From a virus, in the IMG/VR virus record IMGVR_UViG_3300033429_000001, positions 8,742-72,741 of that record: DNA of 64,000 bases; one strand, written 5' to 3'. Below, piece after piece: positions 10,701 to 19,677 of the stretch. Below the pieces are notes generated by a model, which saw only the letters and a list, made by a program, of their open reading frames with translations, was not told the origin of the DNA and made no database searches. A program made the translations under genes and the position numbers. The number at the start of each line of letters is the position of its first letter. Position 1 is the first letter of the stretch.

Positions 10701-11244
10701 TTTACTCAAGGAAATAGAATCCCCTGTGGTCATGGAGACGCACGGCGGTAACGGTGTTTTGTGGCGTCGCTGTTATGATAGCGTACCCGATGGTGTTGTT
10801 TTTGAGAAGGACGCCAAAAAAGCGGATATACTAGGTAAGCAGCGTCCGTGCTGGGCAGTGTATGAGGCTGACTGTATAAGTGCAATTTCCGATGGAGTAG
10901 GAGGGCACCTGGACATCAACTTTGTGGATTTTGATCCATACGGCGAACCCTGGCCAGCGATTGACGCATTTTTTGAGAGTGAACGCCCACGGCCTGATAG
11001 GTTGGCGGTGGTGGTGAATGACGGGTTAAGAGGAACATTAAAAATCGGGGCATGGAGTGTAAAATCTATGACCGAAGCCGTTGAAAGATACGGCAATAGC
11101 ATCTACCATGACTATCTCAAAATCTGCCAAGAATTACTACAACAAAAAGCGGCCCAACGAGGCTACAAGTTAACTCGTTGGGCCGGGTACTATTGCGGCC
11201 ACGCCAAAGAAATAACTCATTATGGCGCGGTGTTTGTTCTTTAG
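10648..11244 (+). CDS. SAM-dependent methyltransferase-like protein (TcmP/DPY type)
   Basis: VMETHGGNG (motif I-like), VVFEKD, VDFDPYG. Confidence 0.65.
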   Translation: MGQRDNSTLALKISLRRNLLKEIESPVVMETHGGNGVLWRRCYDSVPDGVVFEKDAKKADILGKQRPCWAVYEADCISAISDGVGGHLDINFVDFDPYGEPWPAIDAFFESERPRPDRLAVVVNDGLRGTLKIGAWSVKSMTEAVERYGNSIYHDYLKICQELLQQKAAQRGYKLTRWAGYYCGHAKEITHYGAVFVL

Positions 11245-12092
11245 TTGTGTTGAGGGACGCGCCTGGGGTTGTGATAGCCTTCGGGCAAGTACTTCTGCAA
11301 GTCTCTTTTAACATAGTGTGTTGCATTGAGACTATTTAACAATTCAATAACCTCACCCGTGAAACGCTTCCAGTCTGTGGTTTTGGTTAACTTATGATAG
11401 TTGACCCGTCCGACTTTATAGAGACTTACAAAACCGTGAGTTTGCCTGATTATTTCCAGGGTGGTTTCGGTGTCGATGACCGGTTCAAGGGAGACCCAGG
11501 TAAAGATACCGGCGTCGTGAAATTCCTTTAGGGTATCGATTCTGTCTTGAGGTAGGGCAGCGGCTGGCTCCCACTCTTTGGATACATCTGGGTCAAGACT
11601 GGTCAGGGTGCTGGCGAAGGCATCGCGGTTTGGACGGAAAAGGTCAAGATCGCGGAGGGCACGAGAGCCACCTTTTGTCAATGTGCATACTGCAAGCCCG
11701 AAGGCTTGTAGGTTTATGATTGTGGTGCGGGTCAGGCTGTTTGTGATGGGGTTGTAGGGGTCTGTGGTAAAGCTGAGTAAGACCTGCTCAGTGATCCCGG
11801 CGGCCTCGTACTTGGCAGCATCCTTTTGAAGCTTTTGGATGAAGCCTGACCTGGGGGCGGCCGTGGAGTCGAATTCCTGGCGAGACATTCGGAGGACGGC
11901 GGGAACGTAGCAATACACGCACTTGTGACCGCATCCCCGGTAAGGGTTGCAGGCCAGCTTGGCATACTCGCCGGCCTGCCCTGCCGGGGCGTAGATGTGT
12001 GAGCAGCCCTTAATAGAGTGACCGTCGGGGTTGAGTGTAAATTTTGGTTTGATTACCTGGGTTGGTTCAGATAGTAAAGATAGCTGAGTCAT
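11241..12092 (-). CDS. Radical SAM protein (spore photoproduct lyase-like)
   Basis: NPYRGCGHKCVYCY (CxxxCxxC), FTTDPY, TLTK, WVSLEP. Confidence 0.9.
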   Translation of the reverse strand: MTQLSLLSEPTQVIKPKFTLNPDGHSIKGCSHIYAPAGQAGEYAKLACNPYRGCGHKCVYCYVPAVLRMSRQEFDSTAAPRSGFIQKLQKDAAKYEAAGITEQVLLSFTTDPYNPITNSLTRTTIINLQAFGLAVCTLTKGGSRALRDLDLFRPNRDAFASTLTSLDPDVSKEWEPAAALPQDRIDTLKEFHDAGIFTWVSLEPVIDTETTLEIIRQTHGFVSLYKVGRVNYHKLTKTTDWKRFTGEVIELLNSLNATHYVKRDLQKYLPEGYHNPRRVPQHN

Positions 12093-12888: not shown

Positions 12889-12972
12889 ATTATAACATAC
12901 TTATGCCGTAAACACAAGTGGAAGTTTCGCTGAATGAAACAAAAACAAACAAAATTTGATAATTTTAAGGTT
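12889..12972 (-). promoter_or_regulatory. Leftward promoter module, copy B
   Basis: Minus strand TTGTGT-17-TATAAT; near-identical to 14080-14162. Confidence 0.75.
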
Positions 12973-13846
12973 AAACGATGTAGGCAAGAGCAGACTTGAG
13001 GGCCAGGGCTGCGGCGGTACACTGGTCGCGCTTGAAGTTCTTTCCCAGTGCATTCCAGGCTTCGGCGGCCTGTTGCCAAAAATTGATTTGATTATTAAGT
13101 ACTTCGTGAGGCTTATTACCGCTTGTTGGCGGGATAGTTGTTGATGGTAGAGGCGGGTCTGCTGGAACTTCTGTTGGTTGGTCGTTGACGCTAATTTGAC
13201 CGCCAAACAACGGGGCGTCAAACAAGGTGGCCTGGGCCTGCTGCTGGAACAATTCGCCGCAGACTCTACGGAACCATGCCGGGGTAGGGCTGGTGTTGTC
13301 TCGAAGCTTGCGGATGGCTAACATTTGGAAGTTGGAGTCAAGGTCGGCTTGGGAAATGATTTGAGCGTAGCCTAGACCAATGTCGCCGGTTCTAACTAAG
13401 TCTTGAAGGTCATCACGAAGCTTCAGAAGCTTGAGACGAAATTCAACTCTTACGGAACTGACACCGGCTTGCTTGGAACACTTTTTAGCGTCCCACCCGT
13501 AAAGGCTAATCCGGCTGGCGTAAGCGTTGGCCTCGTCGATGGGGTCGAGGTCGTCGCGGCTGACATTTTCGGTGAGCATAACGGCGCTGGCTTCTTCATC
13601 GTTGAGGCTAACGACGATACACGGAACCTCTGACCAGTTCAGGAGTTCAATGGCTCGTGTACGACGCTCGCCGGCAACTATCTGGTACATTTCCGTGCTG
13701 TCTATATGGCGCACGGTAATCGGCTGAATTAGGCCATTCTCGCTGATACTGTTAGCCAGTTCTTGCAGGGCCTTTGGGTCAAAGCGAGTGCGGTCATTGT
13801 TGCCGGGTACTATGAGGGTTGTGTCAATCATTTTGATGTTGGACAT
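12971..13846 (-). CDS. parB: ParB/Spo0J family protein
   Basis: LQELANSISENGLIQPITVR, YQIVAGERRTRA, ENVSRDDLDPIDEA, HTH. Confidence 0.92.
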   Translation of the reverse strand: MSNIKMIDTTLIVPGNNDRTRFDPKALQELANSISENGLIQPITVRHIDSTEMYQIVAGERRTRAIELLNWSEVPCIVVSLNDEEASAVMLTENVSRDDLDPIDEANAYASRISLYGWDAKKCSKQAGVSSVRVEFRLKLLKLRDDLQDLVRTGDIGLGYAQIISQADLDSNFQMLAIRKLRDNTSPTPAWFRRVCGELFQQQAQATLFDAPLFGGQISVNDQPTEVPADPPLPSTTIPPTSGNKPHEVLNNQINFWQQAAEAWNALGKNFKRDQCTAAALALKSALAYIV

Positions 13847-14187: not shown

Positions 14188-14697
14188 ATGGCCAGTAAAG
14201 AGGCTCTAATGGAACTGAGGCGGTCTCTGATCGCTGCCCTTCTATCTGCTGACCCGAGAATTACGCAACGGCAGATATTGACCGCATTGGAGAGAAAGGG
14301 ACTATTTAACCCAGATTCGGGGAATCCCTATTCTGTGGGCACCATCAACACGGACATCAAGGTCATAAAAGTGCAATGGCGCGAGCGGGCAGGGATAGAT
14401 GCAGAGGGCTGGTTGAGCGAGGTTTTGGCCAAACTTGACGAATTGGAAAAAAAGGGCTGGACTACGGGAAAGCCTGATTTGGTACTGAAGTGTATTCAGG
14501 AGCGCAATAAATTACTGGGATTGTACTCCCCCTCCAGGCAAGAAATCACCGGTGCCGGTGGCGGCCCGATAAAGACAGAGGATGCAACCCTTACCGACGA
14601 AGAGCGAATTAATAGAATTGCAGCCATATTTGACCGGGCAAGAGCTAAACGAGACAGGCAAGCTGACACACAACAAGAAAAGTTGCCAGGCGAATAA
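14188..14697 (+). CDS. terS: Terminase small subunit (putative)
   Basis: N-terminal HTH, ERNKLLGL, and C-terminal EITGAGGGPI motif typical of TerS; lies upstream of TerL. Confidence 0.75.
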   Translation: MASKEALMELRRSLIAALLSADPRITQRQILTALERKGLFNPDSGNPYSVGTINTDIKVIKVQWRERAGIDAEGWLSEVLAKLDELEKKGWTTGKPDLVLKCIQERNKLLGLYSPSRQEITGAGGGPIKTEDATLTDEERINRIAAIFDRARAKRDRQADTQQEKLPGE

Positions 14698-14711
14698 TTG
14701 CATGGTATACT
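14683..14711 (+). promoter_or_regulatory. Promoter of the TIGR-like cassette
   Basis: TTGCCA (14683-14688), 17 nt, extended -10 TGgTATACT (14703-14711). Confidence 0.7.
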
Positions 14712-14716
14712 CTCAA

Positions 14717-14797
14717 TGTTCGTGAGTGGTATCAAAATTGTAAAAAACCGTTTTGGGGAGTGCAGGCCACTCGCGAACACCCAAGGCGGTTTTTTTT
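14717..14797 (+). promoter_or_regulatory. Attenuator-like leader (A-B-A'-B'-polyT)
   Basis: TGTTCGTGAGTGG/CCACTCGCGAACA interleaved with AAAAAACCGTTTTGGG/CCCAAGGCGGTTTTTT. Confidence 0.7.
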
Positions 14798-14826: not shown

Positions 14827-15450
14827 ATGGAAACAAAAGAAGATATGGCAAAGCAGAGCAAAATGACGAAGGGAAAAATTACCATTGACGTGCGTGACTG
14901 GCAAAAAGAATTTGCCGAGATAGAGCCGGATTTAACCGGCGATGACCCGATAATTGACCTTGCCCTGACAGGATTAAAACCACAGCAAGCGGGCAGGATG
15001 ATAACCATCGCCGGAGAGCGTGGTGATTTAAAAGACTTTCCGGGTTCAAAGCTTTTGCTGATGGTCGGGGGAGCTAATTTCTTTAGTAGTCACGTGGCGC
15101 GGGCCAAGCGAGAAATTACGCTGAAGAACGGCAAGACCTTTAGCGGTCGGGCCTACATCGCCCCGGCTCGTGAGGTGGCGGGAGAGGATGAGGAGGATCA
15201 GTCTGATAATGATACCCATCTACAACATGCTGCCTCATCCCTTCCTGCCTCAAATTGGCTTGATGAGAAAGTAGTCAGCACAATCGACCCGGCTACTTTT
15301 GACCGGGCCGTCAGGTATCTTTTCAACCAAGTGACGGGTAATATCTGGAAGCGTTTTTTACACATTGCCGAACACAAGCCGGGTGAAGTGGAACGGATAG
15401 CCGGCGAGTTGAAAGATAGGATAGATGAGATGGTAGAGCGGTTGAGTTAG
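14827..15450 (+). CDS. Hypothetical protein co-transcribed with the TIGR-like array; contains one guide unit in its acidic linker
   Basis: 207-aa ORF between the leader and the array; no family recognised. Confidence 0.7.
   Translation: METKEDMAKQSKMTKGKITIDVRDWQKEFAEIEPDLTGDDPIIDLALTGLKPQQAGRMITIAGERGDLKDFPGSKLLLMVGGANFFSSHVARAKREITLKNGKTFSGRAYIAPAREVAGEDEEDQSDNDTHLQHAASSLPASNWLDEKVVSTIDPATFDRAVRYLFNQVTGNIWKRFLHIAEHKPGEVERIAGELKDRIDEMVERLS
15186..15240 (+). ncRNA. Orphan tigRNA-like unit inside the upstream ORF
   Basis: Stem GGATGAGG/CCTCATCC enclosing TCA-gtctgataa-TGATACCCA-tctacaaca-TG. Confidence 0.75.
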
Positions 15451-15960
15451 CCAGCCGGCGCGTAATACCCAAGCATCTTGTGCTACCAATCGCAACCGGT
15501 GGGGCGGCCACATGCCGCGTGATACCCAAACTTCATGTGCCGCCCCACCTTAAAAGCTTACTGAGGGCCAAATCCTAAGTGATGCCCAGTCCAACGGTGC
15601 CCTTGACAAAATCCGAGGTTGAGCCAGGTTGAACGTGATACCCACGATAATTGTGTTCAACCCCGGCTTTTGGAGAGAAGCCAGTAGCATAGTGATACCC
15701 ATGAAACGTGTGCTTCTCTCCCAAATCAAGGCAATTGGTCTTGACCAGATTAGCGGTGATACCCACCTAGACAGTGAAAGGACAAAAATAATGAACCAAA
15801 GTGAATGTGATACCCAGAATCAATGTGTTCAAATTGAAGGCAACAACGGAGAGGGCCAGGAATCCTGTGATACCCAGTTAATGGACGTCCCCTCCGACGA
15901 TAACGGGACGGGCGTCCATAAAAGTCATGATACCCACTCCCCATGTGACACCCGTCCCGA
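15440..15960 (+). ncRNA. Stem-loop TIGR-like array, nine tandem dual-spacer guide units
   Basis: CCA-N9-TGATACCCA-N9-TG with CCA at 15451, 15508, 15568, 15624, 15681, 15745, 15796, 15856 and 15916; each unit is flanked by a unit-specific inverted repeat. Confidence 0.88.
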
Positions 15961-16720
15961 CCCAAAGCCCCGCAAGCATCCCCACCTATGGCAAGCCTAT
16001 CTATGGTGGTACGAGTTGATGGAAATGCGCAAGCGTCACAACTCGCGTATTTCCTCAATCGAAAATGGCAAGAGCAATCTTGACGCGGGATTTGAACGGG
16101 AAATGATAGCGATGCTTCAGCTTGACATCCTGGTTGACCCGAAGAATAAGACCCAGCGAGCTATGTCTGCCAAGCAGATAATGGTGAATTATGGCGAGGC
16201 TGTTGGGCCAATATGGGACTGGTGTTTGGCCCATAAGGGAATGGGGGAAAGCCTGACTGCCCAACTATTGGCCCAGATAGACGACATCAACAATTCCCCA
16301 TCGGTGTCCAGTCTGTGGAGGTTTGCCGGGTTCAGTATTGACGGGGGGAAGGCAGAGAAAAATCATAAAGGGGTCAAGTCGCCCTTTAACCACAAACTCA
16401 AGGGTATCTGTTTCAATATTGCCGATCAATTCATCCGGCAGCAAACGCCGTACTATGTCGATATTTATTATGCCGAGAAACAACGCCAGCGAGAATTATA
16501 TCCCGAACCAGTTTGTCGGGGCTGTGGAGAGTTGGCAGTACAGAAACGGAAAAAGGTTAGAGGCAAAATGGTGATGACCTGGGGCTGTCCCGAGAATGGC
16601 AAGCACGTTGTAAATTATACCGATGCCCACCTGCATATTAGAGGGTGGCGTAAGATGATAAAGGAATTTCTTAAGGACTTGTGGGTAGCGTGGCGCAGGA
16701 TTGAGGGTCAGATAGAATGA
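15791..16720 (+). CDS. tasA: Nop-domain (IS110 C-terminal-like) RNA-binding protein without nuclease domain, TasA-like
   Basis: GAAAGGA RBS before ATG 15791; coiled coil, then KGMGESLTAQLLAQIDDI...SSLWRFAGF, FNHKLK...IADQFIR, YYAEK, HLHIRGWRKMIKEFLKDLWVAW. No DEDD RuvC and no IS110 catalytic SG loop. Confidence 0.8.
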   Translation: MNQSECDTQNQCVQIEGNNGEGQESCDTQLMDVPSDDNGTGVHKSHDTHSPCDTRPDPKPRKHPHLWQAYLWWYELMEMRKRHNSRISSIENGKSNLDAGFEREMIAMLQLDILVDPKNKTQRAMSAKQIMVNYGEAVGPIWDWCLAHKGMGESLTAQLLAQIDDINNSPSVSSLWRFAGFSIDGGKAEKNHKGVKSPFNHKLKGICFNIADQFIRQQTPYYVDIYYAEKQRQRELYPEPVCRGCGELAVQKRKKVRGKMVMTWGCPENGKHVVNYTDAHLHIRGWRKMIKEFLKDLWVAWRRIEGQIE

Positions 16721-16744
16721 GATAAACACAGCAACGCAAACCCA

Positions 16745-16778
16745 AGAGGGCCAGAGTTATCTGACCCTCTTTTATTTT
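16745..16778 (+). terminator. Terminator closing the TIGR-like cassette
   Basis: AGAGGGCCAGA/TCTGACCCTCT hairpin followed by TTTATTTT. Confidence 0.65.
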
Positions 16779-16805
16779 GACGCCAGCCAATCAATATGAT
16801 AAAGT
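16777..16805 (+). promoter_or_regulatory. Putative promoter for terL
   Basis: TTGACG-17-TAAAGT with TGn extension, just before ATG 16815. Confidence 0.5.
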
Positions 16806-16814
16806 ATCATTAGC

Positions 16815-18362
16815 ATGCAAATACCGACGAAGAGCGAATTGATAGAGTTGCAGCCGTATCTGACGAAATCGCAACTGGAAGAAATAGACAAACTGGCGAA
16901 TGAGATCGAGATACCGCTTTGGTATCCCAATCCTGACCACGAAGACGGCTCCCCGAATCCTCAGCGATTGGCCTATGAGAGCGAGGCTGACATCTTGGGG
17001 TATGGCGGTTCGGCGGGATCGGGCAAAACGGACCTACTCCTCGGCGTCGCTGCCACCCAGCAAACCAACTCCGTAATCTTCCGCCGCGTCTTTCCCAATC
17101 ATCGAGGAAACATTGAGCGCAGCCGAGAGATATTTAACCCCACCGGTGTCCCTCATGGCAAAAACAGCTTCAATGAACAGTTTCACCGTTGGAAATTAGC
17201 AAGCGGTAAACAAGTAGAATTCGAAGCCTGCCAACACGAAAAGGACAAAAACAACCAACGCGGACGCCCCCGAGATTTCTATGGCTTTGATGAGGCCACC
17301 GAATTCACCCGCTCTCAATTTGATTTTATCATCGGCTGGAATCGCTCGACAGACCCCAACCAACGATGTCGAATCATTCTTACTTTTAATCCCCCCACCG
17401 ACGAGGTCGGCTCCTGGGTGGTGGATTTCTTTTTACCCTGGATTTCCTACCTTTTCCCCAAAGACTTTGAGCATCCCCGCCCGGCCAGGCCGGGGGAGTT
17501 GCGATGGTATGCCACCGTCGAGGGACAAGAGACCGAATGCACAGACGGAACCCCATTTGAGCGTGATGGGCTTCTCGTCAAGCCCCTTAGCCGGACTTTC
17601 ATCCCAGGCAAACTCAAAGACAATCCACATTTGATAAATACCAATTATGAGGCTATCCTTCAGTCACTGCCCGAGCCGCTACGTAGCCAGGTGCTACACG
17701 GCGATTTTGCGGCAGCCAAAGAGCGCGACCCCTGGCAGGTGATTCCCGTCGAATGGGTCAAGCTGGCTCAAAAGCGGTGGCTGGAAATGGAGAGGCCGGC
17801 GGTGCCTATTTCCGGTACGGGGGTTGATGTGGCCCGAGGAGGCCAGGACAAGACAACAAAATGCGATAGGTACGACAATTATTTTGATGAGGTCAAGGTA
17901 TGGCCTGGGGTGGCCACCCCAGACGGTCCGACGGTGGCCGCGTTGGTCGAGGGCGAATTGGAGGGCGAACCTGCCTACATCAACATTGATGTAATCGGCG
18001 TTGGGTCGTCTGCCTATGACAGCTTGAAGCCAATGTATAAGCGGGTCAACCCGATCAATGCCGGGGAGAGGTCAGACTACCGGGACCGCTCTGGCAAATA
18101 CAAAATGAGGAATGTTCGGGCGGAATATTACTGGCGGATGCGGGAGGCGTTGGACCCGGATCACGGGGAAGACCCGGCGCTGCCACCGGGTAACGAGGTG
18201 GTAGCAGATTTGTGTTCGGCTCGGTATAAGGTGACGACAGCGGGGATACAGATTGAGAGCAAGGAGGAGATTAAGGAGCGGATAGGCCGGAGTCCTGATG
18301 TTGGGGAGGCTATTTTGCTGGCGAATTATCCGGGGGAGCCGCAGGGGATATTCTTTGGATAA
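16815..18362 (+). CDS. terL: Terminase large subunit
   Basis: YGGSAGSGKT Walker A, FDEATEF Walker B, TFNPP, GVDVARGGQD nuclease motif, IGRSPDVGEA. Confidence 0.95.
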   Translation: MQIPTKSELIELQPYLTKSQLEEIDKLANEIEIPLWYPNPDHEDGSPNPQRLAYESEADILGYGGSAGSGKTDLLLGVAATQQTNSVIFRRVFPNHRGNIERSREIFNPTGVPHGKNSFNEQFHRWKLASGKQVEFEACQHEKDKNNQRGRPRDFYGFDEATEFTRSQFDFIIGWNRSTDPNQRCRIILTFNPPTDEVGSWVVDFFLPWISYLFPKDFEHPRPARPGELRWYATVEGQETECTDGTPFERDGLLVKPLSRTFIPGKLKDNPHLINTNYEAILQSLPEPLRSQVLHGDFAAAKERDPWQVIPVEWVKLAQKRWLEMERPAVPISGTGVDVARGGQDKTTKCDRYDNYFDEVKVWPGVATPDGPTVAALVEGELEGEPAYINIDVIGVGSSAYDSLKPMYKRVNPINAGERSDYRDRSGKYKMRNVRAEYYWRMREALDPDHGEDPALPPGNEVVADLCSARYKVTTAGIQIESKEEIKERIGRSPDVGEAILLANYPGEPQGIFFG

Positions 18363-19389: not shown

Positions 19390-19677
19390 TTATTCTCCCC
19401 TATCCTTGAGACTAATTTGTTCAAAGGCTTCTGAGAAGTCTGGCATTCTTGGCGGCGTGATTATGCTTGTAACAGTATCATAGGGCCATCCCAGCCCAGC
19501 CAATTCAAATTTTCTGCACACTTCCAAGATTTCATTATGGGTATCAACTGTAATGTTGAGGCGTTGGCATTCCGTTTGTTGCCATAACTCAAACCTATTG
19601 AGAAGGGCTTCGGCGGACTGGCTGATACGAGCAAAGTCTGGCGTAAACTCAATTAACCGATCTTTGAGGTTTTTCAT
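19390..19677 (-). CDS. Hypothetical protein
   Basis: Directly follows 19680-19856 in the same leftward island. Confidence 0.5.
   Translation of the reverse strand: MKNLKDRLIEFTPDFARISQSAEALLNRFELWQQTECQRLNITVDTHNEILEVCRKFELAGLGWPYDTVTSIITPPRMPDFSEAFEQISLKDRGE

Follow-up and report, generated by a model that had tools for sequence, protein, structure and literature searches.

The DNA analysed here (the window) is a stretch of 64,000 nucleotides (nt) of the 72.7-kb viral metagenome record IMGVR_UViG_3300033429_000001, which is 85% complete according to CheckV. It contains a cassette made of a TIGR array, the gene tasA behind the array and a protein-coding gene ahead of it (the partner gene, also called ORF-X), and within the coding sequence of the partner gene we found one further unit of the array type, referred to below as the embedded unit (Table 1). 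The nine array units follow the pattern CA-N9-(T[GA]AT[AG]CCCA)-N9-TG and are flanked by stems of 3-10 bp with palindromic arms; a one-base variant of the core is present in 2/9 units, and CG replaces TG in 1/9. The product of tasA matched the NCBIfam profile NF052498 (TIGR_Tas_endo) with 152.3 bits (cut-off 100, E 1.8e-44) and, in the PDB, 9mty_A (E 1.9e-23) and TasH 21kl_A (E 1e-4), and AAAGGA precedes its ATG at 15791. As judged from its sequence, the locus is a TIGR-Tas system, consisting of a Nop-type Tas and tandem two-spacer units around a conserved loop repeat. The array overlaps tasA: its last three units (cores at 15808, 15868 and 15928) fall in frame within the first ~55 codons of the gene, where they are read as CDTQ, CDTQ and HDTH. 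Units in the 5' end of tasA correspond to the published 'tigRNA inside tas' arrangement, which is also seen in two of the related loci described below, L001 and L003.

The initial annotation of this DNA had placed a unit with 9/9 geometry at 15186-15240, inside the open reading frame (ORF) of the partner gene, and every element of it was found in place. The frame CA-N9-TGATACCCA-N9-TG is equal in the embedded unit and the array units with respect to spacer lengths, core and end dinucleotides. In the 64-kb window this framed 31-nt pattern occurs 8 times, and all 8 occurrences are on the plus strand within 15199-15947. The exact core has 9 copies when both strands of the window are searched, 8 of them on the plus strand between 15210 and 15936; the ninth, at 19538 on the minus strand, is unframed. 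Of 20,000 window positions drawn at random, 1.7% had an 8-bp Watson-Crick stem in the correct placement. The stem is extended by an outer helix that includes two G-U pairs, as had been claimed, and RNA folding of 15176-15250 gave -32.4 kcal/mol (z -3.98), with 0/200 shuffles equally stable; this hairpin is comparable to two array units, which folded at z -5.50 and -3.95. The same DTH reading frame had also been noted, and indeed the embedded core is read in the codon phase xxT GAT ACC CAx (N-D-T-H), which is the phase of GDTH, CDTQ, CDTQ and HDTH in the tasA frame. From the end of the embedded unit to the start of the array there are ~210 nt, and the distance from core to core is 253 nt. The embedded motif in the ORF is real and far beyond chance. 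A CTT is present in the 3' flank of 5/10 window units, including the embedded one, where it lies at the base of the inner stem; as a candidate CUU processing motif it was rejected as not significant, the chance rate being 27% per 26 nt.

With the protein encoded by the partner gene as query, an exhaustive phmmer search found 200 cluster representatives at E<=1e-3, of which 86 remained at <=1e-10 and 5 at <=1e-30; lengths of 156-232 aa were seen throughout the top 150 matches. A word-index homolog search with the same protein returned only the self-match. These sequence matches identify the ORF as a real gene, whose product belongs to a conserved phage protein family of roughly 190 aa that has not yet been named. 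An AlphaFold2 model built on a 117-sequence alignment had a mean predicted local distance difference test (pLDDT) score of 89.1 and a predicted template modelling (pTM) score of 0.74, and shows a single compact fold in which a disordered stretch separates an alpha/beta domain at the N-terminus from two long helices at the C-terminus. Residues 126-134 have a pLDDT below 50, and the blocks covering residues 121-140 average 49-50; residues ~117-141, which the embedded unit encodes, are the disordered linker of the protein. In the family, this linker varies in length from 8 to 51 residues and is acidic, with a median D+E content of 30%; the partner protein is acidic overall (pI 5.3). The gene that hosts the embedded unit has no similarity to Tas, the tas profile matching only 15791-16720 and its equivalents in other loci. 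All ESM Atlas look-alikes of the partner protein scored <0.9. The best hit of a PDB sequence profile search (E 0.032) was a short RNase III stretch and was not significant, and many small helix-turn-helix DNA-binding domains among the fold matches of the N-terminal domain were not used, because their scores were no better than noise and because of the acidic character of the protein.

To describe the neighbourhood of this family, 17 partner-family loci were compared: the window, L001 (obtained via its TasA), nine metagenome contigs and two viral contigs obtained by a peptide pattern of the partner only, irrespective of TIGR, and four loci from a set of 51 viral Tas loci. In 15/15 loci with downstream sequence, the partner stop codon is followed within a few bases by the start of a TIGR array (the other two of the 17 end at the partner gene), and tasA follows the array in 12/12 loci with enough sequence, the remaining three of the 15 contigs ending within the array. 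The order is partner gene, array, tasA, and the array lies between both genes in all 15 loci. The flanks of the module vary: the window has terminase genes there, L001 has genes for recombination and primase, L013 has a glycosyltransferase, and L014 has both an integrase and a methylase. In a reverse survey of the 51 viral Tas loci, the partner gene was upstream in 7/9 testable loci of the close TasA clade and in 0/41 loci of more distant Tas proteins. Within the close clade, L016 and L024 lack the partner gene, and L019 has no upstream sequence and hence was not testable. The gene-neighbourhood check thus bore out the view of the ORF as a genuine and conserved partner of the TIGR/TasA cassette, and among the loci obtained its homologs did not occur mostly without TIGR/Tas. 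Because the array is present in 15/15 loci, tasA in 12/12, and the partner gene in 7/9 close versus 0/41 distant Tas loci, the partner gene can be described as a clade-specific, strictly syntenic partner. L016 and L024 may represent a sister subclade that lost or never gained the partner. In L024, tasA is flanked on either side by dual-repeat arrays, and in L016 the only array is downstream.

Among the 15 arrays, 4 were of the stem-loop type (the window, L001, L003 and L011) and 11 of the dual-repeat type, with 10-nt repeats and 8-nt spacers (L004-L006, L009, L010, L013, L014, L018 and L021-L023). TasA is ~40-55% identical across stem-loop and dual-repeat loci, and the loop repeat is near-identical (GTGA[TA]ACCCA). 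On the basis of these sequences, stem-loop and dual-repeat arrays appear to interconvert within one TasA clade and the same module.

The embedded unit itself is also conserved. The partner protein of L001 is 35% identical to that of the window (E 4e-30), and both L001 and L003 carry CCA-N9-TGATACCC(T/A)-N9-TG at the same linker position, within embedded stems of 17-25 bp that folded at z -5.67 and -5.44. In a three-sequence alignment of the window, L001 and L003, one register pairs 92.2% of cells, with a change on both sides in 9/17 pairs; 0/500 column shuffles of this alignment reached the observed pairing, and when the partner strand was slid by 1-3 columns, 51-67% of cells paired, with <=3 both-side-changed pairs. 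Several of the compensatory changes are synonymous, e.g., GAG/GCC in the window versus GAA/GCT in L001. Both 9-nt spacers of the embedded unit are wholly different among the three loci. The linkers of five homologs without the core folded normally (z +1.65, +0.11, -1.84, +0.98 and +1.95). The designation of the element as a tenth unit is therefore well founded, since it is kept in L001 and L003 with compensatory changes.

A corresponding arrangement was found in L004, a locus with a dual-repeat array, whose linker contains GTGAAAACCA-N8-ATGCGAGCCA-N8-GTGAAACCCA, that is, loop, edge and loop repeats with 18-nt spacing; these embedded repeats are the repeats of its own array at the spacing of that array. 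Altogether, an embedded unit was detected in 4/16 loci with linker DNA, including 3/3 of the stem-loop type, and in none of the other 12, and the embedded repeats equal the repeats of the locus's own array in 3/4 loci, the dual-repeat type included. In the protein sequences, the unit leaves a peptide footprint, [HQ]xxx[DEG][TYN][HQLRP], which occurred in the linker of 19/117 family members versus 1.5 expected from shuffled linkers; its strict DT form occurred in 11 of the 117 members versus 0.3 expected. The embedded unit is, as far as sequence comparison can tell, a conserved, structured and tigRNA-like element that matches the local array type. In L006 and L021, isolated repeat-like matches ahead of the partner gene were rejected, as they have no partner repeat 18 nt away. 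In L021, a solitary exact edge repeat GTGCGAGCCA is located at 1535-1544, ~170 nt upstream of the partner gene and inside another ORF, and lacks a loop repeat at a distance of 18 nt.

We also examined signals for joint expression of the cassette. The hairpin ahead of the partner gene (-26.1 kcal/mol, z -4.24) and that after tasA (-19.4 kcal/mol, z -4.50) are both terminator-like, with 0/200 shuffles equally stable in either case, and no terminator-like site was found in the window from the partner gene to the end of tasA. In L013, an 11/12 promoter-like site is located before the partner gene and a 12-bp terminator after tasA. The initial annotation had proposed that the ORF, the array and tasA have promoter and terminator in common. 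For the terminator this is plausible, given that hairpins with U-tracts flank the cassette and none lies within it; for the promoter it is not established in the window, because the best promoter match is upstream of the first hairpin.

With regard to the genomic setting, the cassette is bracketed by a 43-nt direct repeat, the two copies of which are 91% identical and represent a duplication of the overlap of the end of terS and the start of terL; the left repeat region also contains the duplicated terL start. Because of this duplication, the arrangement fits an insertion of partner gene, array and tasA in one piece into the terS/terL junction, as a single three-part module, as far as can be read from the repeats. 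A promoter-like site at 16777-16805 (TTGACG-17-TAAAGT, TG-extended), just past the cassette terminator and ahead of terL, could restore expression of terL after the insertion. The gene at 12971-13846 with ParB_N and HTH_ParB domains is encoded on the strand opposite to the cassette, ~1 kb upstream of it, and is not operonic with tasA; its family is large, with 2318 matches at E<=1e-5. Upstream of this gene, a 283-aa ORF (11241-12092, minus strand) contains a CxxxCxxC-like motif (CGHKCVYCY), which is suggestive of a radical-SAM enzyme.

Table 1. Coordinates of the cassette, the embedded unit and neighbouring features in the window
Feature	Position	Strand	Remarks
Partner gene (ORF-X), 207 aa	14827..15450	+	N-terminal domain, disordered acidic linker, C-terminal helical hairpin
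Embedded tenth stem-loop TIGR unit	15177..15249	+	Inside ORF 14827-15450; codes for partner residues ~117-141
Outer helix of embedded unit	15177-15184 / 15242-15249	+	RNA folding
Inner helix arms of embedded unit	15186-15193 / 15233-15240	+	GGATGAGG / CCTCATCC
CA of embedded unit	15199-15200	+	
Spacer A of embedded unit	15201-15209	+	GTCTGATAA
Core of embedded unit	15210-15218	+	TGATACCCA
Spacer B of embedded unit	15219-15227	+	TCTACAACA
TG of embedded unit	15228-15229	+	
Stem-loop TIGR array, nine units	15451..15960	+	Starts one base after partner stop codon
Array core positions	15463, 15520, 15580, 15636, 15693, 15757, 15808, 15868, 15928	+	
tasA, 309 aa	15791..16720	+	Nop-type Tas without nuclease domain
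Best sigma-70-like promoter upstream of cassette	14683..14711	+	TTGCCA-17-TATACT, TG-extended; 10/12, consensus match only
Terminator-like hairpin between terS and partner gene	14742..14795	+	16-bp outer stem, U8 tail, A-run before
Terminator-like hairpin after tasA	16744..16780	+	With UUUUAUUUU
ParB-like gene	12971-13846	-	ParB_N E 1.5e-23, and HTH_ParB
Putative small-terminase gene (terS)	14188-14697		Region ~14-18 kb
Remnant ORF repeating TerL N-terminus	14582-14725		
Direct repeat, left copy, 43 nt	14592..14634	+	3' end of putative small-terminase gene; 91% identical to 16822-16864
Direct repeat, right copy, 43 nt	16822..16864	+	Start of large-terminase gene
Large-terminase gene (terL)	16815-18362		PHROG 979, E 1.2e-42

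Taken together, we consider it probable that partner gene, array and tasA form a fixed module, that the linker DNA of the partner gene doubles as a tenth tigRNA unit and that the partner protein is an accessory or regulatory component whose output is tied to TasA. The embedded unit would be transcribed within the mRNA of the partner gene, and the TasA dimer would bind it like the other units. Two outcomes can be envisaged: the unit may be excised as a tenth guide, thereby destroying the partner mRNA, or, bound by TasA, it may block translation. With either outcome, how much partner protein is made would depend on the level of TasA. The initial annotation had suggested a candidate effector or accessory subunit supplying a function that the Nop-only protein lacks, possibly regulated by Tas binding to its own mRNA. 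The effector reading is not favoured over an accessory or regulatory role, because the protein is acidic and shows no nuclease or other known fold; most likely it assists or regulates the TasA-tigRNA complex without being catalytic, and it is possibly dimeric via its C-terminal helical hairpin. A complex prediction with TasA (residues 55-309) and the partner protein scored 0.00 against a mark of 0.32, a result that says nothing either way.

Several observations weigh against this interpretation. The stem covariation comes from three sequences only, and the arms are also coding. As only 4/16 loci carry an embedded unit, it is dispensable for the family. In L001, the embedded core TGATACCCT and the array core TGTTACCCA differ by two bases. 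In the window, the embedded unit differs from the array consensus at three semi-conserved flanking bases: it reads TCA where the array has CCA and ATG where the array has GTG, and its core is preceded by A, as is that of unit 9; in the relatives, the embedded units of L001 and L003 have CCA and that of L001 has GTG. No self-target of the ten spacer pairs was found in the 72.7 kb of the phage at <=2 mismatches, in a scan of either strand order with gaps of 0-6 nt in which the low-mismatch matches were the array itself only. Searches of Pfam, PHROG, PADLOC and NCBIfam gave no family match for the partner protein, and fold searches of the PDB with Foldseek and VIA, using both the whole model and the N-terminal domain, gave no nuclease, L7Ae, fibrillarin or other known fold. 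With regard to expression, a terminator-like hairpin separates the only good promoter match from the partner gene, and the sole sequencing run containing the locus is a DNA run.

One rival explanation is that the embedded unit is a cis-regulatory site in the partner mRNA, bound by TasA for translational repression or mRNA cleavage, and never a guide. It would account for the flanking bases of the window unit, which depart from the array consensus, and for the embedded core of L001, which is unlike its own array core; moreover, the unit is in a coding region, and its excision would cut the mRNA. However, both 9-nt spacers vary freely among the window, L001 and L003, as guides do, while the 9/9 geometry and the stems are fully kept, and intragenic units in tas become processed tigRNAs according to the available text of Xu et al. 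2026. We judge a purely cis-regulatory site to be improbable.

A second possibility is that the partner gene is the published tasParB, in which case the association would be known and only the embedded unit would be new. The available text of Faure et al. 2025 describes a ParB-like gene, tasParB, that is operonic with some tasA genes; its Methods mention a conserved tasParB-tasA operon with diverse flanks and C-terminal dimerisation, and dual-repeat arrays with 10-nt repeats are sometimes located between tasParB and tasA. This description (operon, flanks, arrays and C-terminal dimerisation) fits the loci analysed here, and they share with tasParB-tasA operons a second protein gene operonic with tasA and an array, as well as a conserved module in variable flanks. 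However, 0/117 family members matched Pfam ParB_N or HTH_ParB at E<=1, and hhalign gave a probability of 0.08% for the family profile against a 26-sequence ParB profile and 0.1% against one ParB sequence. Searched against the whole phage, PF02195 matched 12971-13846 only, and no ParB was among the Foldseek PDB or VIA matches of the whole model and the N-terminal domain. In contrast to TasParB, the partner showed no detectable similarity to ParB/Srx or the ParB HTH in Pfam and profile-profile comparisons or among its fold matches, and its loci differ in that the array lies between both genes in all 15. A better fit to the published description is L054, in which a distant Tas gene (3-434) is followed on the same strand by a 581-codon frame (stop to stop, 791-2533) encoding a plain protein with ParB_N (E 1.8e-18) and HTH_ParB; by its domains, this locus is probably an example of the published tasParB arrangement. 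As none of these searches linked the family to ParB, the partner family is probably distinct from TasParB, the published tasParB having been compared by description only, and identity of the two is in our view unlikely.

The embedded unit might also be a neutral passenger, an array unit copied into a tolerant linker with no function as RNA or protein. Its presence in only 4/16 loci and the variation of linker length from 8 to 51 residues are in line with this, as is the report, in the available text of Xu et al. 2026, that intragenic units occupy disordered regions. On the other hand, the unit is kept across proteins that are 35-38% identical, with 9/17 pairs changed on both sides and partly synonymously, the embedded repeats match the own array in 3/4 loci including the dual-repeat type, and the peptide footprint was found 19 times versus 1.5 expected; a passenger is accordingly very improbable. 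Finally, a chance match, to which one unframed exact core elsewhere (19538, minus strand) might point, is rejected with near certainty, as the framed pattern is confined to 15199-15947, the hairpin has z -3.98 and the three sequences covary.

Returning to the interpretation of a fixed module with a guide unit in the partner linker, a bolder form of it can be considered, in which the partner is the missing functional component of the TasA clade, either an adaptor linking guide-directed DNA binding to a biological outcome or a factor that makes or maintains the array, and the tigRNA in its linker forms a feedback loop. In this feedback version, TasA maturing the embedded guide would cut the partner mRNA and thereby set the ratio of both proteins. 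We regard this proposal as tentative and rather doubtful. If true, this would be the first case of an RNA-guided system with a guide written into the reading frame of an accessory gene, and TIGR-Tas would have its first dedicated accessory protein other than ParB.

The Nop5 scaffold works with small partners (L7Ae and fibrillarin) on box C/D-like RNA. The idea of a Nop-domain scaffold with small partner proteins is what the module has in common with the box C/D small nucleolar ribonucleoprotein (snoRNP), whereas the partner described here is acidic and gave no L7Ae or fibrillarin matches in the PDB with Foldseek or VIA. A similarity to snoRNPs is stated in the abstract of Faure et al. 2025. 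In the available text of that paper, TasA has no clear associations with other proteins, save occasional ParB-like neighbours. No non-ParB partner family and no tigRNA in a non-tas gene was found in the available literature on TIGR-Tas, the supplementary tables of which might list such loci. A strictly syntenic family of ~200 clusters offers a concrete handle on the biological role of nuclease-less TasA.

The closest known architecture is the stem-loop TIGR of TasA loci (PlTasA, BlTasA and MbTasA) described by Faure et al. 2025. As far as the available text of that paper goes, the locus in the window resembles these in its phage-borne, nuclease-less Nop-type Tas and in tandem units with two 9-nt spacers, a conserved loop repeat and variable palindromic arms; the strictly conserved loop repeat and varying arms seen here correspond to the 'intermediate' form of the paper. 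It differs in that very close TasA relatives (~50% identity) use true dual-repeat arrays, so that the module shows an interchange of stem-loop and dual-repeat arrays among close relatives, and in that a conserved third component, the partner gene, is present at the locus.

With regard to intragenic tigRNAs, Xu et al. 2026 (bioRxiv) reported, in the text available, expression and processing of units from within the tas coding sequence, which they place in disordered regions, and that TasA with tigRNA binds DNA and represses transcription. The embedded unit is similar in that it, too, lies in frame within a protein-coding gene of the locus, at a disordered segment. In contrast, the host gene here is the partner gene, whereas such units are described in that text only for tas, and ~210 nt coding for a conserved folded domain lie between the tenth unit and the array. 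The embedded unit would thereby extend the phenomenon of a guide inside tas to a second gene, and it provides a clean case of dual coding, in which the covariation of an RNA stem is achieved partly via synonymous codon changes. Judged by the available texts of both papers (Faure et al. 2025, Science; Xu et al. 2026), TIGR-Tas as a system, its stem-loop arrays and the occurrence of units inside tas are already known, and the conserved partner gene and the unit embedded in it are new.

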